In this document: in pieces, positions 7,483 through 33,514 of the stretch | Layout: each line of letters opens with the position of its first letter | Numbering within the stretch: the stretch's first letter is position 1 | NCBI GenBank assembly: GCA_965203865.1 | Contig: OZ241916.1 | Location: 2,872,738-2,936,737 of the forward strand | Length of the DNA stretch: 64,000 nt | Direction: 5' to 3' | Source: Arenicellales bacterium | GTDB taxonomy: Bacteria; Pseudomonadota; Gammaproteobacteria; Arenicellales; JAJDZL01 | Position numbers and translations under genes: made by a program | Notes under the pieces: generated by a model | The model's input: the letters and a program-made list of their open reading frames with translations, nothing else | What the model was told of the DNA's origin: nothing | The model's database searches: none

Positions 7483-7509
7483 ATCACTGATTAGGCGGAA
7501 TTTAATCAA

Positions 7510-8373
7510 GTGAATACCTTAAAATTCAACATTCTTTCTGCGGCAGATTTATCTCGCCTTAGACATGAGCTGATAAAAGGCGTTGGTGGCGAGCCTCCTT
7601 CCACCCTTATTCACAGGCAGAAGAAGTTTTTGGAATCAGTTGCTTGCAAATCTGCTACAGCACTTTTGGATCAACTTCCCGAAGGACGGGGAGACACAGA
7701 ATTAACGCTTCCGGTATTCAATAGAAAAATCACTGAGGCAGAACTATTTGATCCGCCTATTGACACTGAAAAGCTAATCTTTTCGACTCTCAGCGAACTC
7801 GAACCACGGTACGCTTGCTCACCAGCGTTCTGGGCAAGCCTGCATTTACAGTTGATATCGCGTGACATTGTCAGCCCGTCTTATTTTGCGATGGGGAAAG
7901 CTACTATGTCAGGAAGAGCCCGTATTCAAGAATCACTGCAATGCGATGATGCAAAAATGATTGATAGGTGTGTAAGAACATTTTTTCGAAGATTTTGCGG
8001 ATTACCTGAGGTAAGAGGAACTTCCAGTGTTTTTATGGACTGTCGTACTGCACGAGCTTGGTGGCGCGGGTTCTTGGTTAGTGAAGTACGCCAGTATATT
8101 GATGCGGAAGAAGAAAAACTGTGGAGAAAACTTAGGCATACAGAATTTTGGACTCACTTGATGATGTATGGAGTCCGAAGGCTAACCGTAATCAGTGATA
8201 AGAAAATTCGAGTGGCAACCATCGTTAGATTTGCTGAAATGCACCCTGAATTAAAGTCAAGACAAGATATTCAGCAATTTCTTGGAAAAATCGGAGCGAG
8301 ATCCACTTATCAGGTAATGGGAGCCCTTACGGTTGATGAAAACTTGAAAATTATTCAATCGCTTGAGAAGTAA
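7510..8373 (+). CDS. hypothetical protein (module member; the length is what I recall for SspB-type proteins, but no motif was verified)
   Basis: 287-aa ORF with a GTG start. The next gene's ATG directly follows its stop (TAAATG). Confidence 0.7.
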   Translation: MNTLKFNILSAADLSRLRHELIKGVGGEPPSTLIHRQKKFLESVACKSATALLDQLPEGRGDTELTLPVFNRKITEAELFDPPIDTEKLIFSTLSELEPRYACSPAFWASLHLQLISRDIVSPSYFAMGKATMSGRARIQESLQCDDAKMIDRCVRTFFRRFCGLPEVRGTSSVFMDCRTARAWWRGFLVSEVRQYIDAEEEKLWRKLRHTEFWTHLMMYGVRRLTVISDKKIRVATIVRFAEMHPELKSRQDIQQFLGKIGARSTYQVMGALTVDENLKIIQSLEK

Positions 8374-9657
8374 ATGCAAATCACCAAGCAAAGCCAACCA
8401 TTACCGAGACTTCGCGGGCTTCCTCAAATTGAATTAAACTACGAAGTTCCACACCATAAGGAATTGCCGCACGTCTTCAAGTTTTCAGGCGGAAGATCCA
8501 GCTCTATGCTGTTGCTTGCACTTTTGAAGAGTCGTCAACTTCGACCTTCGCGCGGAGATGTAGTCGTTTTCAACAATACTTCAACTGAATACCCAGCAAC
8601 CTATGAATTTGTGACCACATGCAAGCGCATTGTGGAACAACGCTACAACATTCCATTTTTCTGGCTGGAATTTCAAACCTATGAAGATGCTCGAAGAGGC
8701 CAGTGGTCGCGTCTTCCCACTTTTCGCTTGGTACATCCGGTACCGTACTCTAAATCCAAACCTAATGGTTACCGGCACAAAGGAGAGGTGTTTGAAGAGC
8801 TTGTGTCATGGAAGCAGCAACTTCCAAACCGATTCACACGACTATGTACTCAACATTTGAAATTGGAGACGACCGCGAATTTTCTGGGCGAGTGGCTAGC
8901 GGTAAAGAGCCAAACTCATCGCCTCGGTCATTGGTACGACAAAACGAAAGTTAAAGCAGTCGACCAAAGTGAACGAGCAAAACTTCAAGAATATCTTTTA
9001 TCCCAACCCCCAACGCGATCTAGACAGAAATTTCAAGATTACACTTCTGCCAAGCTGGTAAGAATTTCCAAAAAGAGGCTAGCAGAATACTGCCTTGATG
9101 AGACGGCGACATTGAAAGGTCTTAACCCGGTAGAGTTTATCTCAATCATTGGACTTCGCGGTGACGAGCCGCGTCGCGTTGCGCGGGTGAAGGAACGAAA
9201 TCGATCATTTGCAAATTCGTCTGACTTGCCTGATCGCTTAGCGGACGGAGAGCATGTTTATATGCCACTATTCGATGCAGAAATCGATCGAAATGATGTT
9301 TTGAAATTTTGGTCGAAACAAACTTGGGACTTAAATACTCCTCATAGTCTGAACTTGTCCAACTGCGTATACTGTTTTATGAAAGGAAAGCAAACCTTGT
9401 CCTTGCTAGCATCGAGGGAGTGTTCAACCAAAAACAATTCTGCTCAATATGGACCAGAGCATATTGAGTGGTGGAGTGATATAGAGAATCGTTATTCGCG
9501 GCAGATGGCAAGCAAGCGAAAAAACGGAGCTATAACCAGATTCGGCTTTTTTGGAGCAGATGCCCCAGTATCGTATGCACAAATTCAGAAAGAGGCACGG
9601 ATAAACTCAGACATCGCTCTTGATTCGGACTCACTACCCTGTGAATGCACTGACTGA
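8374..9657 (+). CDS. PP-loop ATP pyrophosphatase of the PAPS-reductase family (DndC/SspD-like)
   Basis: 427-aa ORF. PP-loop variant FKFSGGRSSSMLLLALL is near the N-terminus. Cys motifs NCVYCFMKG and the C-terminal LPCECTD fit the DndC / PAPS-reductase family. A cysteine desulfurase gene lies adjacent. Confidence 0.8.
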   Translation: MQITKQSQPLPRLRGLPQIELNYEVPHHKELPHVFKFSGGRSSSMLLLALLKSRQLRPSRGDVVVFNNTSTEYPATYEFVTTCKRIVEQRYNIPFFWLEFQTYEDARRGQWSRLPTFRLVHPVPYSKSKPNGYRHKGEVFEELVSWKQQLPNRFTRLCTQHLKLETTANFLGEWLAVKSQTHRLGHWYDKTKVKAVDQSERAKLQEYLLSQPPTRSRQKFQDYTSAKLVRISKKRLAEYCLDETATLKGLNPVEFISIIGLRGDEPRRVARVKERNRSFANSSDLPDRLADGEHVYMPLFDAEIDRNDVLKFWSKQTWDLNTPHSLNLSNCVYCFMKGKQTLSLLASRECSTKNNSAQYGPEHIEWWSDIENRYSRQMASKRKNGAITRFGFFGADAPVSYAQIQKEARINSDIALDSDSLPCECTD

Positions 9658-9662
9658 GACTG

Positions 9663-10823
9663 GTGAACGCTACAAAAGACGTAATCTATCTTGACCACCA
9701 AGCAACAACTCCGGTTGATTCTCGTGTACTAGATGCGATGCTGCCGTATTTTTCCGATGAATTTGCAAATCCACACGGCAATACCTATACGCTTTCAATA
9801 CTCGCCCGAGATGCGGTTGAAAACGCCCGACAACAAATCGCTGATACAGTCAGCGCTTCCCCACAGGAGATTTTCTTTACCGGAAGTGCCACTGAATCCA
9901 ATAATCTAGCACTGTTTGGAACAGCAATGGCAAGCAAGAAAAAACGTATTGCGATTGTAGCAACTGAACATAAATCTGTCATTGAACCAGCAATTCGGCT
10001 CCGTTCACAAGGCTATCAAGTGGATGTATTCAAAGTAGCGAAAAATGGAATCCTTAATCCCGAACATGTTCGTCTTGCGTTAAAGGATGACACAATTCTA
10101 CTGTCAGTAATGCTGGTCAACAATGAAATCGGAGTCATTCAGCCGGTTAGAGAAATTGCAAAGATATGTCATGAAAAAGGAGTATTTGTACATTCAGATT
10201 GTGCACAGGCACTAGGCAAGATTCCAGTCAACCTAAAGAACCTTGGTGTTGATCTTGCCACTTTCTCTTCGCACAAAGCTTACGGACCGAAAGGGATAGG
10301 AGCGATATACATTCGGCGAAAACCTAAAGTTTTAATCAAACCGCTTATACTGGGCGGCGGTCAAGAAGGTGGCATTCGCTCTGGAACTTTGCCAGTTCCA
10401 CTATGTGTAGGTTTTGGTACAGCAGCTACACTCGTTAAGAAACAATTGGCAAATGATATCAAGCGTATTGACCGTCTCACAAAAAAACTGCTTGATGGAT
10501 TCAGCAATGTCAAAAGTGATATCTTATTAAACGGCGACCCTGATCGTTTAGCACCCGGATGTCTAAGTATTTCGTTTCCCGGTTACCGAGGCGATAGTTT
10601 AATTGATGCGTTCTCCGGAATAGCATGTTCGACTGGCTCTTCTTGCGAAGCAACATCCACAAACGTTTCGCACGTTCTGCGCGCGATAGGTTTATCCAAA
10701 GCAAGGGCAGAATCTACACTAAGGTTCGGTATTGGTAGAGATACCGATGAAGGACAAATATTTTCCGCACTTGAAATCATTAGAAAGCATTTTCAAGGAG
10801 AGAGTGATTTACGGGAAGCATAA
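9663..10823 (+). CDS. class V PLP-dependent cysteine desulfurase (IscS/NifS/DndA/SspA-like)
   Basis: 386-aa ORF with a GTG start. IYLDHQATTP N-terminus, PLP-lysine context FSSHKAYGPKGIGAIYIR, and catalytic-Cys loop ACSTGSSCEA. Confidence 0.9.
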   Translation: MNATKDVIYLDHQATTPVDSRVLDAMLPYFSDEFANPHGNTYTLSILARDAVENARQQIADTVSASPQEIFFTGSATESNNLALFGTAMASKKKRIAIVATEHKSVIEPAIRLRSQGYQVDVFKVAKNGILNPEHVRLALKDDTILLSVMLVNNEIGVIQPVREIAKICHEKGVFVHSDCAQALGKIPVNLKNLGVDLATFSSHKAYGPKGIGAIYIRRKPKVLIKPLILGGGQEGGIRSGTLPVPLCVGFGTAATLVKKQLANDIKRIDRLTKKLLDGFSNVKSDILLNGDPDRLAPGCLSISFPGYRGDSLIDAFSGIACSTGSSCEATSTNVSHVLRAIGLSKARAESTLRFGIGRDTDEGQIFSALEIIRKHFQGESDLREA

Positions 10824-10955: not shown

Positions 10956-11963
10956 CTATCCTGGCGTTTTCGCCTCGTCTGTCAATTCGTACCTTAAATC
11001 GGGATTAAAGTTCGGAATAGCTATAAATGCACCTCCGTTTTGACGCGCCACCTCCCGCATCAAAACTGCAAACCGGTCATTTGTAGTAATCAAATCCTGA
11101 TTCAAAAAACCAATTCCGTGAATCCGTGCACGCGGCTCACCCGTAGCCGGATCCCTGTTTATTCTGTTAATTCTGTTCAGTACATCGTCATACGACGGAC
11201 CAGTATAGTCATCCCCGAACACATAGATTGACAAACTCTCTGTTTTACGGACGTAGGCATTTAATGCAGTAGTTACGCCTTCCAGGGGACTACTGTTTGA
11301 AAAACTACTCCAAGATCTCATTCGACGCAATACCGACCTTCTTCTTGAAGGTGTGTCTGGAATCCATTTTCCCCCGTAAGCCGATATCAGGTAGTTTCCC
11401 ATATCATTCATAATTTGAAATCCTTTCACCTCAGGATGAATGTCCAGAATATTTTCAATTTCCCGAATGACTCGAGACCAAATTGCCATCATACTGCCCG
11501 ATGTATCCACAACAAAAATGACATGCTCGCTGTCAACCGGAATCCCGCCAACTTCTACTACCTTTTCACTTGTGGCACCCGGTTGCTCCTGAACAACCGG
11601 TTCGCTTTCCTGACTTTGCAAAGCGGCCAGCTCGGCTTGTTTACTGGCAATCTCTTGTTCCAGCGATTCCAGGTTTTCGTCGGACCCGCTAAGCACGTCT
11701 GATGCGATAGAAAGACGTGTTTGCTGCAATTCAATTTGCTGCTGAAGATATTCATTCCTTTTCTCCGCCTGGTCCGATTTGTCCTCCGCCGTCATAACAG
11801 CATCCAGCAAGTTGTTCACTTGAGTCACATCGGGAATACCGCCTTCTACATCCTGCTTTGACAACAGTACAAGCAGTACTATCGCACCAAAGCCGCAACA
11901 AATCACGTCCAAAAATGAGACGCTAAAAATTTCAGTGCCTCTTCTGCGTTCCTTCATGGCCAA
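10956..11963 (-). CDS. ExbD/TolR-like membrane anchor fused to coiled coil and vWA domain (paralog 2)
   Basis: 335-aa ORF. The N-terminus RRRGTEIFSVSFLDVICCGFGAIVLLVLL resembles the ExbD/TolR TM helix with its conserved Asp. A Q/E-rich coiled-coil segment follows, then a vWA MIDAS motif VIFVVDTSGSM. It overlaps the upstream gene by 10 nt. Confidence 0.8.
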   Translation of the reverse strand: MAMKERRRGTEIFSVSFLDVICCGFGAIVLLVLLSKQDVEGGIPDVTQVNNLLDAVMTAEDKSDQAEKRNEYLQQQIELQQTRLSIASDVLSGSDENLESLEQEIASKQAELAALQSQESEPVVQEQPGATSEKVVEVGGIPVDSEHVIFVVDTSGSMMAIWSRVIREIENILDIHPEVKGFQIMNDMGNYLISAYGGKWIPDTPSRRRSVLRRMRSWSSFSNSSPLEGVTTALNAYVRKTESLSIYVFGDDYTGPSYDDVLNRINRINRDPATGEPRARIHGIGFLNQDLITTNDRFAVLMREVARQNGGAFIAIPNFNPDLRYELTDEAKTPG

Positions 11964-13054
11964 AAGGGTGGAGGACTAACCATCATGCCACCTGTTGCAG
12001 AATTCCATTGCCAATACGCAAATGCAGCATTAGGGTCTCCTTCAATTGGAAGCAGTACAGTATTGATTTTGGTTTTTCTGCCTGTAGAAAATCCGACAAT
12101 TGCAGAATAGAACAATGCCTCCCTGCAAGCACTCGTAATCGTCGCATCTTTTTTTGAATAAGATTTACATCTTAGTGCTCTTCGATATTTTAAGCTCAGC
12201 TTGCCAACTCCCTTTGTTGGCAAGCCGTCAGTAATAATATAAATGTCTGACGGCCTCAGTTTGTTCGTCCTTATGTGCCTTAGTGCCTCTTCAAAATTCG
12301 TGGCATTTTCCGGATGCAACTCGGCAAGCGCATCCTCGACCTGTTTTCTTTCCTTGGCATCAGAGCCCTTTATCCATTGTCGCCCATGCAAAAACCGCGC
12401 TTTTTCGTTGTAAGACACTATGAGATACTCGCTGTTATCCGGAACTCGATCCATTATCCAATTCACAACTCTCAAAGTGCGCTGCCATTTGGGAGCGGAC
12501 TTTTTTGCAGACACATCGGCGATCTGAGTTTTTACAATATCAATCAAACGCTCGTTTGCCATTGATGCACTGCTATCCAGCAAAATCAGGATTCGGTCGC
12601 CGCTGACTCTCAAACCGATTAAATGATCTTCTGATACTTTAGGGGAAATATTTGCCCCTTGGGGAGTTTCTACGCTGGCGACCTGAGTTTCTTGAGTCTT
12701 TATTTTTGCTTTCATTTCGGCAATGGCAGTATCCAATTGCTCGATTTCTTTGTTCTTGGCATCAATGCTGGCACTCGTCTGAGAAGTACCGCCTTCTTTT
12801 TCGTTTATTTTTTGTGTTAGTGTCTCAAGCTGCTGTTCAAGCAAGTTGTTTTCTGCCAAAGTCGCTTCGGTTTGACTTTCAATTTCTGCAATGTCGAAAG
12901 CAAGTGCAGAATTTTCTATATTCGGCACCTCAGTTTGGTACTTCACCAGCATGAAAATCAAGGTTACTGCTCCAAGTCCGCATGACATCACGTCAAGAAA
13001 AGCAATATTGAAGCCTTCAGGTCTTCGCTTAGCTCTCCTCATCGGTTTTTCCAA
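11954..13054 (-). CDS. ExbD/TolR-like membrane anchor fused to coiled coil and vWA domain (paralog 1)
   Basis: 366-aa ORF. N-terminus is RRAKRRPEGFNIAFLDVMSCGLGAVTLIFMLV (ExbD-like, Asp in the TM helix). A coiled-coil segment and the MIDAS motif ILILLDSSASM follow. It overlaps the MotA-like gene. Confidence 0.8.
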   Translation of the reverse strand: MEKPMRRAKRRPEGFNIAFLDVMSCGLGAVTLIFMLVKYQTEVPNIENSALAFDIAEIESQTEATLAENNLLEQQLETLTQKINEKEGGTSQTSASIDAKNKEIEQLDTAIAEMKAKIKTQETQVASVETPQGANISPKVSEDHLIGLRVSGDRILILLDSSASMANERLIDIVKTQIADVSAKKSAPKWQRTLRVVNWIMDRVPDNSEYLIVSYNEKARFLHGRQWIKGSDAKERKQVEDALAELHPENATNFEEALRHIRTNKLRPSDIYIITDGLPTKGVGKLSLKYRRALRCKSYSKKDATITSACREALFYSAIVGFSTGRKTKINTVLLPIEGDPNAAFAYWQWNSATGGMMVSPPPFWP

Positions 13055-13826
13055 TACGATTCAGCAAAAACTTTTCACAGTAAGCCTGTGTATCCACCAC
13101 TAGCCCATCCTGCAAGCGCTGCAGCTGATGCAAAAAAAACATGAGAAATATGCTTATGATCAAAGCTACAAATGTTGAATTGAATGCGACTCCCAGACTC
13201 GCTGCCATATTGGCAATATCTCCGGAAAGAGCTTCATCGGCTTGTGCAAGAGCTTGGCCGATTCCACGTACAGTGCCCAGAAATCCAATTGAAGGAATCG
13301 CCCAGATCAAATATCGGATCATCGCATTTTCGGACTCGATGCGTGCAGCCAACGCGTCTACGCCGGTAACGATCGCATCAGAGGTGTTTTGAACACTATT
13401 TGTTATTACAAAACGACGAACCGAAGCTGTTAATGTTTCAACCAGGGGAGTGCTTTGAACATTCTGGGGAAGCGAGTGCAATGACTCCAAACTCATCTCC
13501 ATCTCTTCAACGATAGTTCGGGGCTCTACTGATTCTTCGTCATCGGGGGAGGATTCCATCAAATCAATGTCGAACAAATACCTGTGCCGCGCGATTGAAA
13601 TGCACTTGTCAATGATCAGGAACAATCCCCAGAACATGAGGATAATGCAAATTTCCTGCTCGTAGTCTTTCAAAACAACTGCAAGCGTTCGAATAGTGGA
13701 CTGTCCTTCAGCTTGAGCAATCGCCAGCGCTCTTTCGGCCTGAGGACGAATCACTCCTGTGTAGAGCAAGTGCACGCCCGAGGCGCTAATGATCAGTGCA
13801 ATGATACTCTTGAATACGGATGGCAT
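13029..13826 (-). CDS. MotA/TolQ/ExbB-family proton-channel protein
   Basis: 265-aa ORF with several hydrophobic helices. The C-terminal signature IWAIPSIGFLGTVRGIGQALAQA...FNSTFVALIISIFLMFF is typical of the MotA/ExbB family. Confidence 0.85.
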   Translation of the reverse strand: MPSVFKSIIALIISASGVHLLYTGVIRPQAERALAIAQAEGQSTIRTLAVVLKDYEQEICIILMFWGLFLIIDKCISIARHRYLFDIDLMESSPDDEESVEPRTIVEEMEMSLESLHSLPQNVQSTPLVETLTASVRRFVITNSVQNTSDAIVTGVDALAARIESENAMIRYLIWAIPSIGFLGTVRGIGQALAQADEALSGDIANMAASLGVAFNSTFVALIISIFLMFFLHQLQRLQDGLVVDTQAYCEKFLLNRIGKTDEES

Positions 13827-13838
13827 TTATATCAAGAA

Positions 13839-14003
13839 TCAAATATCAACAGGGAACTTCGCAGGGCTGTTCAGACTAATGGAATACGGTTTATTGTCAG
13901 CGTCTACTTCGGTTACCAGTCCGTATACAACCCAGGCCGCCAATAGTGCGGCAATCAATCCGGCCCAATACAACTTATTTCTGAATCCTGCAACTGCTTT
14001 CAT
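13839..14003 (-). CDS. small single-pass membrane protein (54 aa, below the ORF-track cutoff)
   Basis: Hand translation gives MKAVAGFRNKLYWAGLIAALLAAWVVYGLVTEVDADNKPYSISLNSPAKFPVDI. Its ATG shares one base with the upstream stop (TGATG). It ends 12 nt before the MotA-like start, filling an otherwise unexplained 176-nt gap. Confidence 0.6.
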   Translation of the reverse strand: MKAVAGFRNKLYWAGLIAALLAAWVVYGLVTEVDADNKPYSISLNSPAKFPVDI

Positions 14004-16036
14004 CATCTGCCTTTCCCGTACACATACCTTGCAATGCGAAATCCTACCATATCTTTGCCCTTGTCCAAGCCTTCCCGAAAACTGGAACGTATTTCAGTCA
14101 AGCTTGCAGAACGAAAATTACTCCCCTTTATTACATGGCTGGAACCAAAAGGAGCACCGAACGGGTCCACCTCAAGCTCCGCTGACTGGGAAGGAAGCAG
14201 CATATAAACATCATGCACCCATTCACTCACGTTTCCCGCCATGTCATGCAATCCAGCCGAATCTGGTGGAAATGAACCAACCGGAGCAACCGAAGGGTAG
14301 CCATCTTTGTACCGGGGTATGATTTTTTCAAGAACCTTCTTGCCGCTCTCATCCGCAAGATTTCCACTCCCTGCAGGAATTGTCATTTCATCACCCCAGA
14401 CAAAGCGCACTTTCTTTTGCCTCCCGGCAACTCGTGCCAGCCATTCCCATTCCGCTTCAGTCAACAAGCGATAGCCGTTTGCTTGCGAATTGAAATTGGC
14501 AACCCATCCGTTTGCAATCTCATACACCAACTCCAGCCCTTCCTTCTTGCTCAGCCAATTGCAAAATTCTACCACATCTATCCATGATACATTCCTTATC
14601 GGCAGGTCCGGTTTGGTAACTTGATTTCCTTTAAATCGTGCAAACTGGCCCTCGGTAATTTCTGTAATACCGGCAAAAAACGGTTTCGTCAACTCAACAT
14701 TTCTCAAGATTTCGTTGGCGCGCTGTCCTTTTTCGCTTCTTGGTGCGCCCATAGTGAACTTTCCCCTTGAATCATTGCCGGGTTTAAACAGTTTCATCTT
14801 GACCCCGATAGAATTGGTAATCATGGGTGGGGCTTCCGACATTAGTACATCAAATTCCTTTTGGAGTGTCTTCTCCACCAGAAGCGGTGAACTTGCATCA
14901 GGAGTAATTTGTACATCTACAGCTCTGTAGCCGTCTCTTTTCAGCGTCAAGGATTGCGGAACGGTCTGAAGATCCAGTTGCCTTGGCGTGGTACCGATGG
15001 ACTTTCCGTTTAATATGATTTCCGATTCCGGACTTGACCTGACCACGACTTGCCCTGTTTCTTCTTCCAGTTGAAACTGGACATCCAAACGTTCATCAGG
15101 CTTCAGGTTGATACTTCTGGATTGGGATACATATCCTTTTTTCTCATAGACAAGTATGTGATTCTGGCTTGGTGTTACCGGAAATGCGGACGAAGGGTCG
15201 ACAAGTAGTCCGTCAACTGTAAACATTCCTCCCGATGGCGACACTTTAGCCTGTACAAAAGCCATCTTCATACTTAGCAAGAAGTCTCGAACCAGGTCTT
15301 TTGACTTGTTGGTAATTTCAACTGTGTCGGTTGCCGTTAAATAGCCAGAAAGACTTACGCTTATATTGTGAACACCTCCTTCCAGACTATCGATTTTCAA
15401 GGGGGTTCGACCATACTGTCTACCATCAACTTCAACCAACGCCTGCTCAGGAACTGAGTTAATAGACAAACTACGAGAAACAGGCTTGAGTTGCACCTCC
15501 ATTGAAACAGACTCTCCCCTTTCCACGTCAATATCAATAGATTCTTTCTTAAAGTACGGATGGTCAATTTCAAACGACTTCGTGCCGGCAAGCATTTTTT
15601 GAACAAATCTCTCACCTACAAATACCCTTTCACCGTTTAGACTCCATTGCGTACCGGAACTTGCTGGAATGGTCGAAATTTCTACTGTTGCAGGAACCTC
15701 ACGCATATTGACAGACAGGTTTCTGATTCCTGAACCAAAATCCACCGTGGGAGTTTCATCGTAAAATCCTTTGGCCTGAATAAGCAGACCCACTTGCCCG
15801 CCGAGCGAAAACACTTTCCCCGCAATAACAATTCCGGCGCCATCGGAAATAGACATTTCTGAAATTAATGCAGCTTCCTGTGGCGTTATGTGAACGGATA
15901 CTGCCCTAGTCCAGTAATTTATTGCTGCAGCAATAAGCAATAGCAGCAATATTCCCAGACCAGCAAACAATAATCTGGCTCGAAAACGTTTTTTCGCAAT
16001 AACAAGTTGCTGGTCAAATTTGTTCACTGCATACAA
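14003..16036 (-). CDS. membrane-anchored PEGA-repeat protein with C-terminal FGE-sulfatase (SUMF1/EgtB/PvdO-type) domain
   Basis: 677-aa ORF. N-terminal TM segment LLFAGLGILLLLLIAAAI. PEGA-like segments are present, e.g. VEVDGRQYGRTPLKIDSLEGGVHNISVSLSGY. FGE-domain motifs are GYRLLTEAEWEWLAR, GNVSEWVHD and VIKGSNF. Confidence 0.85.
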   Translation of the reverse strand: MYAVNKFDQQLVIAKKRFRARLLFAGLGILLLLLIAAAINYWTRAVSVHITPQEAALISEMSISDGAGIVIAGKVFSLGGQVGLLIQAKGFYDETPTVDFGSGIRNLSVNMREVPATVEISTIPASSGTQWSLNGERVFVGERFVQKMLAGTKSFEIDHPYFKKESIDIDVERGESVSMEVQLKPVSRSLSINSVPEQALVEVDGRQYGRTPLKIDSLEGGVHNISVSLSGYLTATDTVEITNKSKDLVRDFLLSMKMAFVQAKVSPSGGMFTVDGLLVDPSSAFPVTPSQNHILVYEKKGYVSQSRSINLKPDERLDVQFQLEEETGQVVVRSSPESEIILNGKSIGTTPRQLDLQTVPQSLTLKRDGYRAVDVQITPDASSPLLVEKTLQKEFDVLMSEAPPMITNSIGVKMKLFKPGNDSRGKFTMGAPRSEKGQRANEILRNVELTKPFFAGITEITEGQFARFKGNQVTKPDLPIRNVSWIDVVEFCNWLSKKEGLELVYEIANGWVANFNSQANGYRLLTEAEWEWLARVAGRQKKVRFVWGDEMTIPAGSGNLADESGKKVLEKIIPRYKDGYPSVAPVGSFPPDSAGLHDMAGNVSEWVHDVYMLLPSQSAELEVDPFGAPFGSSHVIKGSNFRSASLTEIRSSFREGLDKGKDMVGFRIARYVYGKGR

Positions 16037-17765
16037 CCGTTACATCAACCGGTCTACTTCCGGGTTCTATGTTTACAGAAACCCGGACTGACCTGTAGCC
16101 ATCACGCGACCCTTCAAATACATGTTTACCGGGACGCAGCTGAATAGTTCGACTTGTTGTTTTTCCTACAATCCCCACGCCAACTACAACAATGTGGGTT
16201 TCATCATCAGATATGACATTGACTTCAACTTTCTTTTCATACAGCACCAGCCTGGCAGACAACTTTTCATGTAATTGCTTTAACTTGGGGCTGAAGTCAA
16301 GATACAGTTCTGCGTCTTGCAAATGTCCGAGCACCTGGTTTGCAATGTTTGAGTCTGCCAGTCTGTTTTCAAGCACAAGATCCATATCAAGTTGATTCGT
16401 AATCGACACAATTACATTTGCTGCTTTTTGATTTTCGATTGTTACCAAGTCATTGGGCTTGAGTTTCAGTGCCTCGGTAAAGTGATGCAAGGATTGATTC
16501 CAGTTGTCTTTTTTAGCAAATTCTGTTGCAAGGGCCACTTGTTTCGAAAATTGCTGCTCATTTTCCACTGATTTGATTTTACTGTCCAGCGCAGCGACCT
16601 CGGCTGACTTCGGGAAAATACTCTTGGCAATCGAATACTGCTTTTTCGCCTTTTCCAGATTTTCTCTGCCCAGCTCCCTGTTGGCACTACGAATGGCATC
16701 AGCGAACCTTTGCCTTGTAATATTATTCTGAATACTTGCAATACGGTCCTTTACCTCGGGGCGATTCGAGTCAAGGCTTATCACCTGCTTCAAAATTGCA
16801 AGTTCTTTCTGAGGCTGGTTTGTATTCCGAGCAATGCTGGCTTCGCGTAGCAAATTCAATACTTCCCCCAGCGTATTGGCGCGAGGCTGCAGTGCAAGCA
16901 TTTCGGAATCGTTTGGGGAAAGTCTTAGTGCTTCACTTATATAGTTGCTGGCTTGCAAGGGTTGATTATTTAAAAATGCGGTGTTTGCTGCAAATTTCAA
17001 TTCGTCAAGTTTCGCAGCATGCTCGGCTTCCAACCGCTCCACTGTGTCAATTGCATTGTCAAGAGTTTCGGCTGCCCCCTTGTAATCGCCAACCGAAAAC
17101 ATTTCTGTCGCCCTTTTCTTGGATTCCGCCAGATCATCAGTTTCTGCAGCTGCCCAAGTAGCCAAATTCAATTGAGCTATTATTGGTTGGACTGTTTGTT
17201 CGTAATACCTGAATTTTTCCAGGTACTCTTTTCGAAAATCTATGGATTCACCAATGGTCGGCTGGGGTTGCACGGAATCATCTTTACTGGCTACCTGATC
17301 AACTTCCACAACTTCCGTTGCTGGCTGCGCAGTCTGACCTTCAACAATTTTTTCCGAAGTGGTCTGTTCCTCCTTTCCCGATTCACTGTCAGCCAAGTCA
17401 GTTTGACTGGGTATTAATTGAGTTGCTTTTTCCTTTTCATCTGTCGGTAATATCTTGTCAACGAGTGATTCCACCAAGGAGGATTCTTGAACATCCCGTG
17501 ATTCAACTTGATTTTCAGCTACTGCAGAATATTCAGGCGATGGTTGATTCGTATTGTCAAGATTTTCTGTTGATAAAATTCCCTCATCCACTTCGGCAGA
17601 GATTGATTCCGACGGCTTCTCAGGCGGAGCATTCTGTTTCTCAATTACATAGAATTGCAAAAAAATCGCAGCTGCGAGTACAGCTGCGGCCAACCCAAAC
17701 CAAAGGTAGCGAGAAGTTTTTTGATACTGCTGTGCTCTTACCCTTGAAATCTTGTCCTCAAGCAT
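16014..17765 (-). CDS. membrane-anchored TPR-repeat protein with acidic linker and C-terminal PEGA-like domain
   Basis: 583-aa ORF. TM segment WFGLAAAVLAAAIFLQFYVI is followed by an E/Q/S-rich region. TPR-like repeats are visible, e.g. ASNYISEALRLSPND and LHHFTEALKLKPND. The C-terminus is GKHVFEGSRDGYRSVRVSVNIEPG. It overlaps the next gene by 23 nt. Confidence 0.75.
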   Translation of the reverse strand: MLEDKISRVRAQQYQKTSRYLWFGLAAAVLAAAIFLQFYVIEKQNAPPEKPSESISAEVDEGILSTENLDNTNQPSPEYSAVAENQVESRDVQESSLVESLVDKILPTDEKEKATQLIPSQTDLADSESGKEEQTTSEKIVEGQTAQPATEVVEVDQVASKDDSVQPQPTIGESIDFRKEYLEKFRYYEQTVQPIIAQLNLATWAAAETDDLAESKKRATEMFSVGDYKGAAETLDNAIDTVERLEAEHAAKLDELKFAANTAFLNNQPLQASNYISEALRLSPNDSEMLALQPRANTLGEVLNLLREASIARNTNQPQKELAILKQVISLDSNRPEVKDRIASIQNNITRQRFADAIRSANRELGRENLEKAKKQYSIAKSIFPKSAEVAALDSKIKSVENEQQFSKQVALATEFAKKDNWNQSLHHFTEALKLKPNDLVTIENQKAANVIVSITNQLDMDLVLENRLADSNIANQVLGHLQDAELYLDFSPKLKQLHEKLSARLVLYEKKVEVNVISDDETHIVVVGVGIVGKTTSRTIQLRPGKHVFEGSRDGYRSVRVSVNIEPGSRPVDVTVVCSEQI

Positions 17766-17777
17766 AATGGAGCATTC

Positions 17778-19091
17778 CTACAACTGAGTCTCCGGCGTGG
17801 CTTCCAGTTCGTAAATTTTTCTCAGAAATTCAATCCACTGCCCGTATTGCTCCGAAGCATTGCCAACCAGTTGCGCCGTTTCGTTTTCAAATTCCACCAC
17901 TTGCGGACCCAGTTCCAAATCAAGCGATTCCCCCAATTCATTCAGTGCATCAAGGTGGACTCGAGATTCTGCGTTGTCTTGCAAGCCACTCCGAATTGCA
18001 AGAACACCTCCAACCAAAGCCGCGGCTGTCGCTGCTCTTGTGCCGCTGTCATAGCTGTAGTCGTCCCTGGAGGCACCGGCAACAGCCAAGCCGATTGCCA
18101 GAGCACCGAGAAATGTTTTCATCGAGCCTGCACTCTTTGCCTTTCTTGCCGCCTTGGCTTCCGGCAGTGTTCGTTCTTGCCACACCAAATAGCTTTCATT
18201 CAACTTGCTGTTGAATTCCATATAGTGGGATTGCATTCGATCAATAAACAATTGGTCGCGGACGCGTATTACATTGACTCTTTGCAGCATGGGGTCGCTT
18301 TCAGCAGGAAGTGCTACCAATTTAATCCGCTTCCCATCACTGGTCATATATTTTGCAAAAGTCTCTTCTGACAAGCTGCTGGCAAATCGAATTTGCTTAA
18401 GAGGGGGAAGACCACGCAAGTAATTCTCATCTTGCTTTTTCAACTGCTCAACAACGTACTCGGCAGCTTTCTTGAACACAGGTTCATATGAGTCCTTTCC
18501 CTTGTTTCGATAGGTGTTGTAAAACTTTTCATCAACCCTGTGTGAAAAAGACTTGGTGAACCACTTGCGGCCAGAAATGTCATAGGCTGTAATTTCGATT
18601 TCTACATCTTCGCCATTGGAATTGATAATTTTTCCCTGAACGTAAAAGTCCGCTGTAACGACTGGACTAGGAACAACCCTGACTGCACCGAAGGCCTTCG
18701 TATCTTCCAATGCAGTTTTCATGTTCAGCGCGAAACGCGTTGATTCGGCACGCCTTAGCTCAGGCCATATTCCCAAGTTTGCAGTATCATTCTGAGCCTG
18801 ATGACTGCCGTAACCCGGGTCGCCAGGCTCAACTTTCACACCTTGCTTCGCGTCCTTTTTGGGGGACAAGTTAGGGTCAAACACCGGGATGGCGACTTCA
18901 AGCTGCAACGAACTAAAAGCCGGAACCACTTCCTTGGATGCCTGATTCTGCTGGCCGAAATTAGAGGATAATGATGGCCCTACCGGAATATTTTCAATTG
19001 AGCCGCCTGCACTCTGATTAGTAGGGGCAGAACCGCAACCGACCAATCCAAGCGTAATTGCAGAAAAGACCAGAATACTGGTCAATTTCAT
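17778..19091 (-). CDS. lipoprotein, function unknown
   Basis: The ORF extends to 19118, but the likely start is the internal MKLTSILVFSAITLGLVGCGS, which has a lipobox (LVGC). A C-terminal hydrophobic G/A-rich segment (FLGALAIGLAVAGA...ALVGGVLAI) is present. It ends 12 nt upstream of the TPR gene. Confidence 0.75.
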   Translation of the reverse strand: MKLTSILVFSAITLGLVGCGSAPTNQSAGGSIENIPVGPSLSSNFGQQNQASKEVVPAFSSLQLEVAIPVFDPNLSPKKDAKQGVKVEPGDPGYGSHQAQNDTANLGIWPELRRAESTRFALNMKTALEDTKAFGAVRVVPSPVVTADFYVQGKIINSNGEDVEIEITAYDISGRKWFTKSFSHRVDEKFYNTYRNKGKDSYEPVFKKAAEYVVEQLKKQDENYLRGLPPLKQIRFASSLSEETFAKYMTSDGKRIKLVALPAESDPMLQRVNVIRVRDQLFIDRMQSHYMEFNSKLNESYLVWQERTLPEAKAARKAKSAGSMKTFLGALAIGLAVAGASRDDYSYDSGTRAATAAALVGGVLAIRSGLQDNAESRVHLDALNELGESLDLELGPQVVEFENETAQLVGNASEQYGQWIEFLRKIYELEATPETQL

Positions 19092-19375
19092 ATTTTTTCC
19101 ATTTCTACTTAAATACATAATCTACATGTCCTTGCTTTACATTTGCATAACTTTGGGAAATCTTCAGAATTTATCTGTAAGAAAACATACCCAAAGCAAT
19201 TTATTTATGCTTATCATACATGATATTCCAGTCGGTTCAACCCCTTGAACTGATATTACGACAGCAATTGTCGCAATCAAAAGCAACTGAACTTATTTCA
19301 AATCAATTCCAGAGCAACTATTCAATCCCATTTTCTGATTCTAAATTGACTTGAAAAACTGAAGCAAACTGTATT

Positions 19376-21013
19376 CTACTTCAAAGGAAGCCCTTTATAT
19401 CTTCTGTACTTGTTCCACAATTCCGCCTGCTTTACCGGGTCAGTTTCTTCCATAGCTGCTTCACGAAGCTGCCTGGCAATAATGGAATCATTGTCTACCG
19501 GAGGTATATCTTCGGGCAACTGTCCATTGGTGGGGGTAGGTGGAACCGTATCCAAAGTTGCCAATTCGGACTCAGCACCTTGCTCGCCGCCTCCACCTGC
19601 TGGCGGTTGGGAATCGACTTCAGAATCAGCGGACTCCGTTCCCTGCATATTAGCACTTGCTATGGCATCGCCTTGCGTCCCGCCGCCTGCTGGCGATTGG
19701 GAATCAATTTCAGAGCCGGCGAGTTCCGTTCCCTGCATCTCAGCACTTGCAGTGGCATCACCTTGCGACTCGGCTTTAGTCTGACTGTATTCGGACCCAG
19801 TTCCCTGTAGTTCGCCATCACTATCTGAACTGCCGCTATTTGATGCAGATACTGTGTCATCGCATGGGGCACGATGCAACGATTCCATCAACAACCCGTC
19901 AAGCAGTTCAATCTTTTCCTCGCGAGTCAGATTCACATTGTCAAGGTTGGGTGCTGTAATCGTATTGCAATCTTGTAATTCTGAAAGCCCTCCGATTGAA
20001 CCTTGTGCATAACTACCATAATTCAAGGGAAGATTTTTATGTTTTCTGTACTCGTTCCACAATTCCGCCTGCTTTGCCGGATCAGTTTCTTCCATGGCTG
20101 CTTCACGAAGTTGCCTGGCAATAATGGAGTCATGGTCTGCAGGAGGTATATCTTCAGGCACCTGTCCATTGGATGCAGCAGAAGCTGTATTCAATGTTGC
20201 CAATTCGGACCCAACACCTTGCTCTCCCCCTGCCGGCGGTTGAGAATCAATTCCAGAGCCAACGGACTCCGTCCCCGGAATATCAGTACTAGCCGTAGCA
20301 TTGCCCTGCGTCGTCCCGCCTTCGCTTGTCGTCGGCCGGGGAGCAGTGCCAGAACTACCGGACCCTGTTCCCTGCAAACCAGCACTTGCCATAGAATCGC
20401 CCTGCGCCCCACCTTCGCCTGTCGACGGCTGGAAACCAATTCCAGAATTGACAGACTCCGTTCCCTGCAAACCAGCACTTGCCATAGAATCGCCCTGCGT
20501 CCCACCTTCGCCTGTCGACGGCTGGAAATCAATTCCAGAATTGACAGACTCCATTTCCTGCATACCGGCGCTCAACCCGGTATCGCCTTGCGAACCGCCT
20601 TCACTTGCTGACGATTGGGAGCCAGTGCCAGAACCATCGGATTCCGTTCCCTGCAAACCAGCACTTGCGGTGGAATCACCTTGTGACTCGCCTTTGCCCT
20701 GACTGTATTCAGACCCAGTTCCTTGTAATCCACCATCACTATCTGAATTGCCGCTATCTGAACCATCACCATTTGATGCAGATGCTGTGCTGTCGCATGG
20801 GACAGCACGATTCAACGGGTCTACCAGCAACCCATCAAGCAGTTTAACTTTTTCCTCACGAGTCAGATTCACATTGTCGAGATTGGGTACTGTAATCGTA
20901 TTGCAGTCTTGTAATTCTGAAATACTCTTGGTCTGACTTTGTGCATAACAGCTAATATGCAGCATTCCTGAGAGGGTGCAAACTAGCAAGGCAAGCAAAT
21001 ATTTTTTACACAT
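19376..21013 (-). CDS. secreted acidic repeat protein with a two-fold module duplication and nested roughly 31-aa tandem repeats
   Basis: 545-aa ORF with signal peptide MCKKYLLALLVCTLSGMLHISCYA. The module ELQDCNTIT.PNLDNVNLTREEK...DSIIARQLREAAMEETDP..QAELWN.YR occurs twice. Internal G/S/T/E/Q-rich repeats such as GDSMASAGLQGTESVNSGIGFQPSTGEGGAQ are present. Confidence 0.8.
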   Translation of the reverse strand: MCKKYLLALLVCTLSGMLHISCYAQSQTKSISELQDCNTITVPNLDNVNLTREEKVKLLDGLLVDPLNRAVPCDSTASASNGDGSDSGNSDSDGGLQGTGSEYSQGKGESQGDSTASAGLQGTESDGSGTGSQSSASEGGSQGDTGLSAGMQEMESVNSGIDFQPSTGEGGTQGDSMASAGLQGTESVNSGIGFQPSTGEGGAQGDSMASAGLQGTGSGSSGTAPRPTTSEGGTTQGNATASTDIPGTESVGSGIDSQPPAGGEQGVGSELATLNTASAASNGQVPEDIPPADHDSIIARQLREAAMEETDPAKQAELWNEYRKHKNLPLNYGSYAQGSIGGLSELQDCNTITAPNLDNVNLTREEKIELLDGLLMESLHRAPCDDTVSASNSGSSDSDGELQGTGSEYSQTKAESQGDATASAEMQGTELAGSEIDSQSPAGGGTQGDAIASANMQGTESADSEVDSQPPAGGGGEQGAESELATLDTVPPTPTNGQLPEDIPPVDNDSIIARQLREAAMEETDPVKQAELWNKYRRYKGLPLK

Positions 21014-21466: not shown

Positions 21467-21946
21467 GTGGTTGTGAAAAAGAGTACGCTAATTGTATTAA
21501 TTCTATTGTTTTCATTCTTGCAAGGATGTGCAACAAATTACCAGGCACAGGGATTAACAGGAGGATTTACTGAAACGCAGCTAGATAAAAATGTATTCAA
21601 AGTATCGTTTCGTGGTAACGGGTACACAAGCCCAGAAAGAGCATCCGACTTGGCGCTGTTACGAAGTGCTGAACTTACTTTACTGCATGGCTACAAATAC
21701 TTTATTGTGGTCGAAAATTCAGATGTGGTTAATGTGAGTACATATACAACACCTACAACCAGTTACACAACATTCTATGGCAATACTGCGCAGACATATA
21801 CCTACGGTGGGCAAACTTACAATACATCTAGACCAAATTCTACAAATGTTATCGTCTGTTTTGATGAAAAACCTGATAATGCTGTTCTTTCATATAACGC
21901 AGAATTTGTTTATAAACAACTCTCTGCAAAGTATGAAATCCAGTGA
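21467..21946 (+). CDS. small lipoprotein (CC0125/CC1285-like family, recalled from memory)
   Basis: 159-aa ORF with lipobox LLFSFLQGC. The motif GGFTETQLDKNVFKVSFRGNGYTSPERASDLALLRSAELTL..GYKYF is one I recognise from a conserved lipoprotein family. Confidence 0.7.
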   Translation: MVVKKSTLIVLILLFSFLQGCATNYQAQGLTGGFTETQLDKNVFKVSFRGNGYTSPERASDLALLRSAELTLLHGYKYFIVVENSDVVNVSTYTTPTTSYTTFYGNTAQTYTYGGQTYNTSRPNSTNVIVCFDEKPDNAVLSYNAEFVYKQLSAKYEIQ

Positions 21947-22073: not shown

Positions 22074-23489
22074 TTAATCTTGCCTGATTTTCCAGCGTGC
22101 AGTTCTACCACGACCAGAAGAGACGATCTTGCCTTGCTCCCTGAGATTGTCCAAAGCTCTTCTGATTTGCCGTTCAGATGCGAATGAGCCTACGCGAGAA
22201 GAAATTTCTTCAAATGACAGGCCGTCAGCCGCATCCAACAATAAATGCAGAATATCAGCTTGCCTTTCAGGAAGAGTCCTTCTCACACGCTGGTCCAGAA
22301 GTGATTGACTGTTGCGGCGAAAGCGTACAGTAACACATCCACCTGCATCTTCTATTTCAGGATTCGGCAATCCTGCGTCAGATAGCCATTCTGCAATCCT
22401 GATTGTACCGCGCCCCCATTCTTCAATAATGCCACTCAAAAAGAAACTGCGAGCAATCAGTGGATTCCACGGTTGAGAATCATGCGGCAAAAATAATTTT
22501 TCCGGTGTAAGTCCAAAATGCAATGACCCTGATGAGGTAATTTCAAGACGATCATCATAAACAGCCACACCAACAGATCCCCCAAGAATCAAGTAGTCCC
22601 GGTGACAAAAAGCATTTGCGAGAGCTTCTCGAATTGCTTCCCAAGGGTAAAGTGGTTTATCAATGCGCTCAGATCTACCCTCCTCAAATCTACTTGCTAT
22701 TGGTAGATGATCTCTTAAAAATCGCTCTGCATCTGAAAATAGCTTAAAGGCGTTTCCACGATACTGGCGATTGTCCGATATTTCAGTGCGATCCAACCCT
22801 CGAAACCTGGCGGTACGGAGCAAACATTGAGGGTAGTCAAATTCTATGCGTTCTGTATTGCCATATAGAACAACAGCTGCCTGTAGTAACTGACCATCTT
22901 GAATCAACCTCAACCCTCTTAACATATCAATTGGGTCTCGAGATACATAACCATCCAGCATACCTCGTTGAATTGCAATAGACACTACGCGAAAAATCTC
23001 TGATTCATCCAGGTCATCAATCGACCAATTTGCGGCAACCTGATTCTCCCATCTTTGTCGAGAGTGCATGCTCTCCAGTATCATCTGCTTGTATTCATCT
23101 GATGAAACCGCAATCGTAGTATTGCCAACCCTTCGATACGGCAATCCGCGATAAACATAAGGGTCTGACCTGCCTGCTTTTACTTCTACCGCGAGCACCT
23201 CAAGATTGCCACCAATTTGAATTCTCTCAATAGCTGGAAATACAGACGGTTCAATTCTTTGAAATTCAGCGCTTAATCTTTCAATTGTTTGCTCAGAAAC
23301 TTTTTGACCAATAACTCTTCCACTTTGTTCAATTCCAAACAGAATATATCCACCTCGCTGATTGAGCATTGCACACATAGTTTTTGCGGCTTCCCGACGT
23401 GCACCGGTCATTCGTTTAAATTCAAGCGTCTCTGATTCACCCGCTTTAACCTGATACTTGATTTGCTCGAGATTCATTGCTGCATTCAC
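22074..23489 (-). CDS. AlbA_2 (Schlafen-like DNA-binding) / HATPase_c_4-type ATP-binding protein with C-terminal wHTH
   Basis: 471-aa ORF. N-terminal GESETLEFKR is typical of the AlbA_2 domain. The central ANAFCHRDY motif and a C-terminal winged-helix-like tail (IRRALDNLREQGKIV) follow. Confidence 0.7.
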   Translation of the reverse strand: MNAAMNLEQIKYQVKAGESETLEFKRMTGARREAAKTMCAMLNQRGGYILFGIEQSGRVIGQKVSEQTIERLSAEFQRIEPSVFPAIERIQIGGNLEVLAVEVKAGRSDPYVYRGLPYRRVGNTTIAVSSDEYKQMILESMHSRQRWENQVAANWSIDDLDESEIFRVVSIAIQRGMLDGYVSRDPIDMLRGLRLIQDGQLLQAAVVLYGNTERIEFDYPQCLLRTARFRGLDRTEISDNRQYRGNAFKLFSDAERFLRDHLPIASRFEEGRSERIDKPLYPWEAIREALANAFCHRDYLILGGSVGVAVYDDRLEITSSGSLHFGLTPEKLFLPHDSQPWNPLIARSFFLSGIIEEWGRGTIRIAEWLSDAGLPNPEIEDAGGCVTVRFRRNSQSLLDQRVRRTLPERQADILHLLLDAADGLSFEEISSRVGSFASERQIRRALDNLREQGKIVSSGRGRTARWKIRQD

Positions 23490-30994: not shown

Positions 30995-31432
30995 CTACCA
31001 TGACTTTTGTAATCGAGTTTCGATTTGGGTTGCCGACCTAATTCTCAAACCTTCCTCGAAATGAAGAAGAAGCCAGTACTCAAATTTTGGATTGCTTAGT
31101 GCTAATCCACGGCTATGAGCTTTTTGGGACCAATTATGAATCTTCAGCAATTGGTCTTCTGGCCAATTATCCCGGTCAACAATTATCCAGGTTTCGTCAT
31201 TTTCACCCAATGTGTTGTCTTTTAAATACTTATTGATTCGATTCAATAAATTTTCCGGGGCTACCTTTGTTGAACTAAAATTTAACGAATGAGTTCGTGC
31301 CGCTTCAGCAAAATTGTTCAAAATTCTGAAATACTGGGGTTCTGTTCTCCTACCCTCTGTACTCAAAATAAATAGTTTTTTAGGTGTCCTTGTCGGGTGT
31401 GTGCTTCTCGTGCTTCTGAATTTATGAGTCAT
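30995..31432 (-). CDS. RloB-like small Toprim-type protein
   Basis: Likely start is MTHKFRS (Met60 of the 204-aa ORF), one nt after the upstream stop. Motifs are FILSTEGRRTEPQYF (Toprim Glu), WIIVDRDNW (DxD) and LALSNPKFEYWLLLHFE. Confidence 0.8.
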   Translation of the reverse strand: MTHKFRSTRSTHPTRTPKKLFILSTEGRRTEPQYFRILNNFAEAARTHSLNFSSTKVAPENLLNRINKYLKDNTLGENDETWIIVDRDNWPEDQLLKIHNWSQKAHSRGLALSNPKFEYWLLLHFEEGLRIRSATQIETRLQKSW

Positions 31433-31433
31433 T

Positions 31434-33344: not shown

Positions 33345-33514
33345 ATTTCTCCGGCAAGATAGACTTAACCAATGGGTCGCAACCGCAAATTCTGCTTGCT
33401 GTAATAGTCGCCAAGAAATCTCTAATCTTGTACAAACTTCCCTTGGTTTGAACTTGGTGCTGGTGGCTTGAAATGCCGCCAGCAAACTGACTCACTACTT
33501 GCAGATTAACTTTT

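Follow-up and report, generated by a model that had tools for sequence, protein, structure and literature searches.

The closest described relatives of the genes reported here are bacterial periplasmic force transducers in which a trans-pore helix (TPH) is joined to a vWA domain, and whose genes lie next to tolQ-like genes in Idiomarina (Mol Biol Evol 2025, 'Origin and Evolution of Bacterial Periplasmic Force Transducers'; PMC12204202, section 8, Fig. 4c-d). These TPH-vWA proteins occur mostly as heterologous pairs with a TolR/ExbD-like trans-pore helix bearing a conserved Asp, and published AlphaFold 3 (AF3) models of 5:2 complexes place the helices of the vWA proteins inside a pentamer with the Asp lying within a ring of Thr residues (PMC12204202). 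Clusters of this kind are stated to range over Proteobacteria and Verrucomicrobia, with a phenotype that the authors describe as not known (PMC12204202). The published text treats the three core genes only, making no mention of a PEGA-FGE protein, a lipoprotein, a secreted disordered protein or a small peptide and discussing no TPR gene for this second vWA family (PMC12204202). Here we describe an eight-gene operon of the same kind, lying between positions 10956 and 21013 on the minus strand of a 64,000-nucleotide stretch of DNA (the window) from an Arenicellales bacterium (GenBank assembly GCA_965203865.1, contig OZ241916.1, positions 2,872,738 to 2,936,737 of the forward strand).

In common with the published clusters, the locus has a tolQ-like gene beside a heterologous pair of genes for vWA proteins tethered by a transmembrane (TM) helix, with no tolR, exbD or motB, and it shares with them the conserved TM Asp, the lack of an SHLS motif and the conserved Thr residues of the channel. 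A profile of Alteromonadales orthologs retrieved a vWA protein of Idiomarina xiamenensis (E 5e-155), and the I. xiamenensis contig carries all eight genes in order, the species compared being I. xiamenensis and that of the paper I. loihiensis. Because I. xiamenensis carries the same eight-gene cluster, this locus is a member of the published, computationally described TPH-vWA kind and, to judge from the sequences, is orthologous to the Idiomarina-type system. A first-pass annotation of the window, made by a model from the letters of the sequence, had stated that no system with this combination was known to it; that statement does not hold, the core, the Asp, the pairing and an AF3 5:2 model all being present in PMC12204202. 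Its reading of the locus as a 5:2-type motor is reasonable and matches the published model, but is not new. Beyond the three-gene core, which is already published, the novelty here lies in the set of accessory genes, in the conserved mini-peptide and in the motifs that are candidates for docking.

To our knowledge, in all characterised 5:2 motors (MotAB, ExbBD, TolQR, GldLM, ZorAB) the periplasmic part of the dimer either binds peptidoglycan or passes force to a separate protein. In the operon described here the ion-coupling helix, the stalk and a predicted metal-dependent adhesion domain are found in one polypeptide, and the presumed dimer consists of two paralogues. With moderate confidence, the locus is read as encoding an envelope machine of eight components, with a non-canonical ion-driven motor of 5:2 type at its centre. 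The MotA/TolQ-like protein would form a pentameric channel enclosing a heterodimer of the two vWA paralogues, each helix of which would bring an ion-binding Asp, in place of TolR, ExbD or MotB. Ion flow would turn or cycle this heterodimer, the motion being carried by a helical stalk of ~80-95 residues (~12-14 nm) to two periplasmic vWA heads, each bearing a metal ion-dependent adhesion site (MIDAS), which would grip and pull proteins of the same operon. The likeliest targets of the heads would be acidic or C-terminal motifs of the lipoprotein, of the secreted disordered protein or of the SLNSPxSFPVDI peptide, while the TPR protein and the PEGA protein with its putatively dead FGE domain would act as periplasmic or peptidoglycan-associated scaffolds. 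Such a logic would be that of Ton/Tol-Pal-like force transduction with the roles of TolR and TolA fused in one polypeptide. The most likely output is envelope or outer-membrane maintenance or the mobilisation of a surface component, which is favoured because the subunits are all of binding or structural type and none is an enzyme, a pore or a nuclease.

The first-pass annotation had placed a seven-gene operon at 10956-19118, and an open reading frame (ORF) check recovered its seven minus-strand ORFs at unchanged positions, with their domains and motifs upheld by Pfam and by codon positions. Its boundaries were too narrow, missing the first gene of the operon, which belongs to a family found in 62 loci, such that the operon has eight genes and not seven (Table 1). 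Gene 1 is separated from the lipoprotein gene by 257 nucleotides (nt) in this window, a gap that is mostly below 40 nt in the other loci checked. For the longest ORFs the junctions are as noted at first pass, with overlaps of 10, 26 and 23 nt and two 12-nt gaps, and a TGATG junction is formed at gene 5 if its second ATG is the start. For genes 7 and 8 internal ATG starts appear more likely than those of the longest ORFs, because a 362-residue database product uses one of them and the junctions of orthologs favour them. With the internal starts, as read from the DNA, the MotA-like gene and the first vWA gene overlap by 14 nt and the two vWA genes by 4 nt (ATGA), the latter overlap being the norm among orthologs. 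Whichever starts are used, the genes of the operon are translationally coupled. Promoter and terminator scans of the operon stayed at chance level, and the sole match in an Rfam scan of the window was a tRNA at 33268-33341, outside the operon.

The same unit recurs well beyond this genome. Used as a query, the 366-residue vWA protein retrieved 1,972 related cluster representatives, nearly all named just 'VWA domain-containing protein', and relatives turned up in at least 590 species when each species was represented by a single genome; 80 loci were fetched. Eight genes in one fixed order were seen in nearly all of the 80 loci, and practically every locus of sufficient length kept that order. 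When the window proteins were used in tblastn searches, both vWA paralogues were detected in all 80 loci and the channel protein in 79 of them, with the channel gene adjacent to the vWA genes in 79, followed by the PEGA-FGE protein (76 of 80), the TPR protein (69 of 80) and the lipoprotein (68 of 80). All-against-all clustering of the flanking ORFs recovered the gene 1 family in 62 loci, invariably upstream and on the same strand, and no other flanking family in more than five. Since gene 1 and the small ORF recur and no other flank does, the unit is a self-contained eight-gene module, and the recurrence of the whole gene order in 80 independent loci counters a chance grouping. The conserved-neighbourhood check proposed at first pass thus finds the gene set syntenic elsewhere.

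Hosts of the cluster span at least six bacterial classes, taking in Gamma-, Alpha-, Zeta- and 'Delta'-proteobacteria, Nitrospirales and Binatia. Among the Gammaproteobacteria they include Arenicellales, Thiotrichaceae, Methylophaga, Alteromonadales, Endobugula and sponge-symbiont lineages, among the Alphaproteobacteria Rhodospirillales, Sneathiella and Magnetovibrio, and beyond these Zetaproteobacteria, Nitrosomonadaceae, Desulfobacteraceae, Nitrospirales and Binatia. The closest relatives are sponge-associated Gammaproteobacteria (~46-66% identity), and the genes flanking the cluster in Denitrobaculum and Idiomarina are unrelated and ordinary.

The product of gene 6 carries the MotA/TolQ/ExbB signature reported at first pass, matching PF01618 MotA_ExbB in Pfam (E 3.7e-14, 53 bits against a cut-off of 22.9), and has four hydrophobic segments, a MotA-like number. 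A hallmark segment, 'PSIGFxGTVRGIG … LGVAFNST', is invariant in 76 channel orthologs, across which Thr185 and Thr218 are conserved at 97% or more. Aligned by hhalign with E. coli TolQ (E 6e-5), Thr185 and Thr218 fall opposite TolQ Thr145 and Thr178. Four NCBIfam equivalog models returned scores far below their cut-offs for this protein, with 18.2 bits against 221 for TolQ, 18 against 135 for ExbB, 13.8 against 340 for MotA and 12.2 against 500 for ZorA, and a search of the PDB with the single sequence gave no match. The channel gene overlaps the first vWA gene.

In the first vWA protein (gene 7, 366 residues) a basic patch precedes a TM helix with Asp21, followed by an 81-residue helix, a linker and the vWA domain, and its paralogue (gene 8, 335 residues) has the same plan, with an Asp19 helix, a Q/E-rich helical region and a vWA domain. 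By the positive-inside rule, the basic patch before the TM helix implies an N-in topology. The 366-residue protein matches VWA_2 (E 6.1e-08) and also VWA_3 in Pfam, while the 335-residue protein matches VWA_2 only at E 0.048, its assignment as a vWA protein being based on its MIDAS motifs and on 23-31% identity to the 366-residue paralogue, the mutual identity seen in cross-hits between the two orthogroups. The motifs FLDVM and FLDVI in the helices and DSSAS and DTSGS in the heads lie at the expected codons. Asp21 is nearly invariant in its orthogroup, missing from one N-terminally truncated sequence only, and Asp19 is present in 72 of 72 orthologs; the consensus of the helix, FLDVMSCGLGAV, has the conserved Asp and no SHLS or His motor-binding motif. 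Both paralogues have an invariant DxSxS MIDAS motif, and candidates for the other MIDAS residues are conserved further downstream, at T252 and D276 in the 366-residue protein and at D251 in the 335-residue protein, and both paralogues appear to keep a complete MIDAS, for which metal binding is predicted. The 366-residue head also has an invariant C-terminal W-P and two invariant Cys residues (296 and 310), the Cys pair being consistent with a periplasmic location.

Structure prediction with AlphaFold2 (AF2), for which database homologs were used, gave for the 366-residue monomer a TM helix, an unbroken helix from 47 to 127, a flexible linker and a vWA domain with a predicted local distance difference test score (pLDDT) above 90, and the model had 196 vWA-domain matches in the PDB at E<=1e-3. 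The distance between the Asp and the MIDAS varies within narrow limits and is much the same in the two families, at 133-143 residues for the 366-residue and 129-142 residues for the 335-residue protein, as expected if the two were chains of one stalk. As a sign of co-evolution, a correlation of stalk length between the paralogues was sought; no such correlation emerged (r = -0.2), as the lengths hardly vary. The first-pass description of two Asp-bearing helices of TolR/ExbD style, each continuing into a helical stalk and then a vWA domain whose MIDAS motif is intact, is therefore upheld as far as sequence analysis reaches.

Several observations weigh against an ion-driven motor. The channel protein is very divergent within the MotA/TolQ/ExbB superfamily, a profile of its orthologs matching in the PDB only MotA of B. 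subtilis, at E 0.079, and the position of TolQ Glu173 is a Val in the channel (hhalign). The TM part of the AF2 monomer of the 366-residue protein is of low confidence, a profile of the Asp helix matched no PDB chain at E<=10, and Pfam gave no match, ExbD included, to the isolated N-termini of the vWA proteins. With hhalign the Asp comes into register with D23 of E. coli TolR and D25 of E. coli ExbD, at a probability below 1%. Homology of the Asp helix to ExbD, TolR or MotB was thus not statistically demonstrable by profile, Pfam or hhalign, and for this reason the assignment as a motor rests on gene context, residue conservation and the published model. The contact between channel and vWA proteins has context and the published model as its two grounds, and the roles proposed for the five accessory proteins are conjectures drawn from the type of domain only. 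A literature search by PGAP product names and by domain combinations for experimental work on phenotype, expression or localisation found none beyond the computational paper of 2025.

The lack of significant homology between the Asp helix and ExbD/TolR would also suit a static scaffold like that of the Bat operon (BatA-E), in which the vWA proteins assemble with the TPR and PEGA proteins and the MotA-like protein is a separate channel or sensor with no rotary coupling. Bat operons are typified by two membrane-anchored vWA proteins together with TPR proteins, and the structural matches of the vWA domain include BatB. Bat operons lack a MotA-like channel, however, and their vWA proteins have neither the Asp helix nor the long stalk; the BatB model scored 12.7 bits against a cut-off of 350, and there is no MoxR/AAA or DUF58 gene in the cluster or its conserved flanks. 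Unless it has a part in ion coupling, it is difficult to see why an Asp buried in a single TM helix should stay invariant in the two paralogues across phyla; the channel gene shares an overlap with the first vWA gene and is never found apart from the vWA pair, and the cluster encodes no alternative dimer partner for the channel, all of which makes such a scaffold unlikely.

As a putative ion-driven motor, the locus can be set beside the characterised machines. The first-pass exclusion of Tol-Pal, TonB, flagellar stator, Zorya and Bat systems stands, as the proteins fell short of the curated TolQ, ExbB, MotA, ZorA, BatB and GldK models, and no match to ExbD, TolR, MotB or OmpA was found by Pfam or NCBIfam in the eight proteins, nor was there one among the recurrent flanks. 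The operon resembles Tol-Pal (TolQ-TolR-TolA, TolB, Pal, CpoB) in combining genes for a putative 5:2-type motor driven by the proton motive force with a periplasm-spanning helix, an outer-membrane-type lipoprotein and a TPR protein; in addition, the channel matches TolQ in its pore Thr residues, and the folded domain of the lipoprotein weakly resembles the N-terminal domain of TolB. In contrast to Tol-Pal, it lacks the periplasmic domain of TolR, domain III of TolA, the propeller of TolB and the OmpA-like domain of Pal, and the TolR-like helix, the stalk and the head form one polypeptide, present as two paralogues. With ExbB-ExbD-TonB it shares the MotA_ExbB superfamily and an Asp in a single-pass helix after a basic patch, but the cluster has no ExbD periplasmic domain, TonB or TonB-dependent receptor. 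Likewise, the number of hydrophobic segments and the sole PDB match of the channel profile recall the flagellar stators MotAB and PomAB, but there is no MotB-type OmpA-like peptidoglycan-binding domain and there are no flagellar genes nearby.

Of the five accessory genes, the four assigned at first pass (PEGA-FGE, TPR and lipoprotein genes and one for a 54-residue membrane protein) hold up on inspection by Pfam, by the lipobox and by a motif found in 74 of 76 loci. The gene 1 product carries a signal peptide and, N-terminally, the motif 'DC...LTREEK...C', then a disordered middle rich in G, S, T, E and Q, and a conserved, acidic-then-basic helical C-motif, 'PEDIPPxDNDSxxxxQLRxAAxxExDPxxxxxLWNxYRxYKGLP', and belongs to no Pfam or NCBIfam family. 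In the window the whole module is duplicated in tandem, with the N-motif 'LQDCNTIT.PNLDNVNLTREEK' at residues 34 and 346, the C-motif 'DIPPxDxDSIIARQLREAAMEETDP' at residues 288 and 502, and repeats rich in G, S, T, E and Q setting the motifs apart; the module is single in most orthologs (~190-330 residues), with diverged versions in the Alteromonadales (Idiomarina, Pseudoalteromonas).

In the lipoprotein (gene 2) an invariant lipobox Cys28 is followed by a disordered linker, and each of the 578 homologs found is called either 'hypothetical' or 'Lipoprotein'. Its AF2 model (pLDDT 71.5) has a disordered tether, a confident alpha/beta domain at ~115-260 and a long hairpin of helices (276-350 / 358-413) whose tip is hydrophobic and rich in Gly and Ala, and the extreme C-terminus is conserved as E..TPxxQL. 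A Foldseek search of the PDB with this model gave nothing at E<=1e-3, the weak top matches being the ring-forming lipoprotein PelC, the TolB N-domain and the hairpins of alpha-pore-forming toxins. The gene 3 product has an N-in membrane anchor, an acidic disordered region, TPR repeats (TPR_2, E 6.5e-07) and a conserved C-terminal beta domain that is PEGA-like by eye (Pfam E 0.1).

Gene 4 encodes an N-in anchor, several beta-sandwich domains of PEGA/CarboxypepD_reg type and a C-terminal FGE-sulfatase (C-type-lectin-like) fold, with Pfam matches to FGE-sulfatase PF03781 (E 2.6e-35) and PEGA (E 7.8e-29). The FGE domain has no Cys or a single one in 64 of 65 orthologs, and the segment corresponding to the position of the FGE cysteines reads 'KG.swrSG..t.LR.ayR' in the gene 4 consensus. 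The catalytic Cys pair being absent, the domain is predicted to be catalytically dead. Elsewhere, association with peptidoglycan has been ascribed to PEGA domains and lectin-like binding to FGE/FGS domains (PMC7159879).

The small peptide of gene 5, with its basic N-terminus and hydrophobic helix, has (I/F)SLNSPxSFPVDI-COOH as its last 13 residues, nearly invariant across phyla. This motif with its stop codon was found in 74 of 76 loci, mostly ending 0-10 nt before the MotA-like gene, and a sequence logo counts L-11, P-8, F-5, P-4, D-2 and I-1 from the C-terminus as the near-invariant positions. An AxA-type cleavage site is present in 64 of 75 orthologs, which predicts a mature peptide of 14-22 residues. 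By its conservation, gene 5 is judged to encode a real small peptide, putatively signal-anchored or secreted, although it is not called in the public annotation of Denitrobaculum. The conserved extreme C-termini of the peptide (FPVDI), the lipoprotein (TPxxQL) and the vWA protein (W-P) suggest candidate docking sites.

On the output of the machine, an equally ion-driven motor could instead serve a motility, adhesion or secretion apparatus like those of the type IX secretion system (T9SS) and gliding (GldL-GldM with a GldK/PorK ring) or of the Myxococcus Agl-Glt machinery with its vWA adhesin CglB. The best NCBIfam match of the FGE domain is GldK/PorK, and in the PDB the domain matches PorK/GldK (1e-10) besides FGE (4e-15) and PvdO (3e-12); a 5:2-type motor gene beside a non-catalytic FGE-fold protein is a feature shared with the T9SS (GldL/PorL, GldM/PorM, GldK/PorK, GldN/PorN). 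The weak likeness of the lipoprotein alpha/beta domain to PelC, a ring-forming export lipoprotein, points the same way. Myxococcus vWA adhesins are described as working with TolQR-type motors (PMC9946355), and gliding motility was raised by the authors for the first, TolA/TonB-like family of vWA transducers (PMC12204202). The GldK match, however, amounts to 62.7 bits against a cut-off of 350 and spans the generic FGE fold only, and in this operon the FGE protein has an inner-membrane anchor (N-in TM helix, no lipobox) and is no lipoprotein. GldL, GldM, GldN and Glt genes are all missing from the cluster and its recurrent flanks, as are outer-membrane barrel and cargo genes. The Alteromonadales, Sneathiella, Magnetovibrio and sponge symbionts that carry the cluster are not known to glide, and such an apparatus is considered improbable.

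The first-pass suggestion of a role in conflict finds no support, and a Zorya-like anti-phage system whose MotA-like channel senses envelope perturbation is very improbable: the operon does lie in this window amid defence-type genes (PDC-M33A/B, SspD-like, DndA/SspA, Schlafen/AlbA_2), it shares with ZorAB a MotA-like channel outside motility and has a weak, partial ZorA match in PADLOC (E 7e-4), and vWA, FGE and PEGA domains are found in conflict systems (PMC7159879), but no PADLOC-DB 2.0 system was matched beyond that weak ZorA and coiled-coil noise, the ZorA equivalog score is far below its cut-off (above), there is no ZorA tail, ZorB or ZorC/D/E effector and no nuclease, protease, NTPase or other effector, the accessory domains are all periplasmic with an FGE domain without catalytic Cys, the flanks vary, being ordinary in Denitrobaculum and Idiomarina and with no family in more than five loci, and the eight-gene make-up is fixed across classes, with FGE and vWA domains conserved and not diversifying, unlike defence islands.

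A more far-reaching proposal, put forward tentatively and open to considerable doubt, is that the eight genes encode a complete third autonomous machine for trans-envelope force driven by the proton motive force, beside Ton and Tol-Pal. Such a machine would comprise a heterodimeric rotor fused to metal-dependent vWA 'grippers', a dedicated outer-membrane lipoprotein with a membrane-inserting helical hairpin and an obligatory, usually unannotated secreted peptide of ~15-20 residues, which might for instance be bound by the MIDAS or the TPR repeats or plug the motor. If this were true, novelty would extend to the whole gene set, to the peptide as a subunit and to the physiological role. The cluster occurs widely among marine and symbiotic proteobacteria, with at least 590 species representatives; being self-contained and found in genera that can be cultured and manipulated genetically (Pseudoalteromonas, Idiomarina and Glaciecola among them), it makes the question of what the motor pulls on directly testable. 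The full parts list, with its five accessory proteins, the often-missed mini-peptide and the terminal motifs, provides targets for mutagenesis and complex prediction.

Table 1. Genes of the eight-gene operon and positions of conserved residues, in window coordinates.
Feature	Coordinates	Strand	Length	Description
Gene 1	19376..21013	minus	545 aa	Secreted disordered protein; outside the range of the first-pass annotation
Gene 2	17778..19118	minus	446 aa	Lipoprotein
Gene 3	16014..17765	minus	583 aa	Membrane-anchored TPR protein
Gene 4	14003..16036	minus	677 aa	Membrane-anchored PEGA-FGE protein
Gene 5	13839..14006	minus	55 aa (54 aa from second Met)	Small peptide
Gene 5, C-terminal motif	13842-13880	minus		Codons of (I/F)SLNSPxSFPVDI
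Gene 6	13029..13826	minus	265 aa	Divergent MotA/TolQ/ExbB-family channel subunit
Gene 6, residues	13272-13274; 13173-13175	minus		Thr185; Thr218
Gene 7	11954..13054	minus	366 aa (probably 362 aa from ATG at 13042)	TM-helix-vWA protein
Gene 7, residues	12992-12994; 12563-12577	minus		TM Asp21; MIDAS D160-S-S162-A-S164; also T252 and D276
Gene 8	10956..11963	minus	335 aa (probably 333 aa from ATG at 11957)	vWA paralogue of gene 7
Gene 8, residues	11907-11909; 11493-11507	minus		TM Asp19; MIDAS D153-T-S155-G-S157; also D251

Around the operon the window holds further genes of note. Directly downstream of parE/parC and converging on the operon, a defence-type module at 4582-10823 (+) encodes the PADLOC candidates PDC-M33A (E 5e-33) and PDC-M33B, a family-less ORF, a weakly SspD-like protein and a cysteine desulfurase of DndA/SspA type (E 8e-134), and may be a system related to DNA phosphorothioation. 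On the other side, a CC0125/CC1285-family lipoprotein gene (21467-21946, +; NCBIfam E 7e-27) is divergent from the operon and is not conserved beside the cluster elsewhere. It is followed at 22074-23489 (-) by a gene for a Schlafen/AlbA_2 and HATPase_c_4 protein, elsewhere annotated as 'RecG-like' or as a transcriptional regulator, which has the operon region on one side and the housekeeping genes pgm, lpd, sucB and sucA on the other.

Further along the window, a tRNA-Pro gene at about 33268-33344 (+) lies inside a stretch of low GC content (0.38-0.40) at 30995-36856 (-), whose genes encode AbiL (AbiLi/AbiLii), NsnB/NsnC and a GmrSD_N-domain protein, and which looks like a defence island beside a tRNA. 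Two giant paralogous ORFs of 1539 and 1500 residues at 38142-42761 (-) and 44027-48529 (-) have Calx-beta domains, one of them with an autotransporter beta-domain, and are probably surface adhesins. A second region of low GC content (~0.39), with a strong positive GC skew, extends over 58117-62501 (+) and carries genes for a 730-residue HATPase_c/HATPase_c_3 protein, a family-less ORF and a C-5 cytosine DNA methylase, which may form another restriction or defence module.

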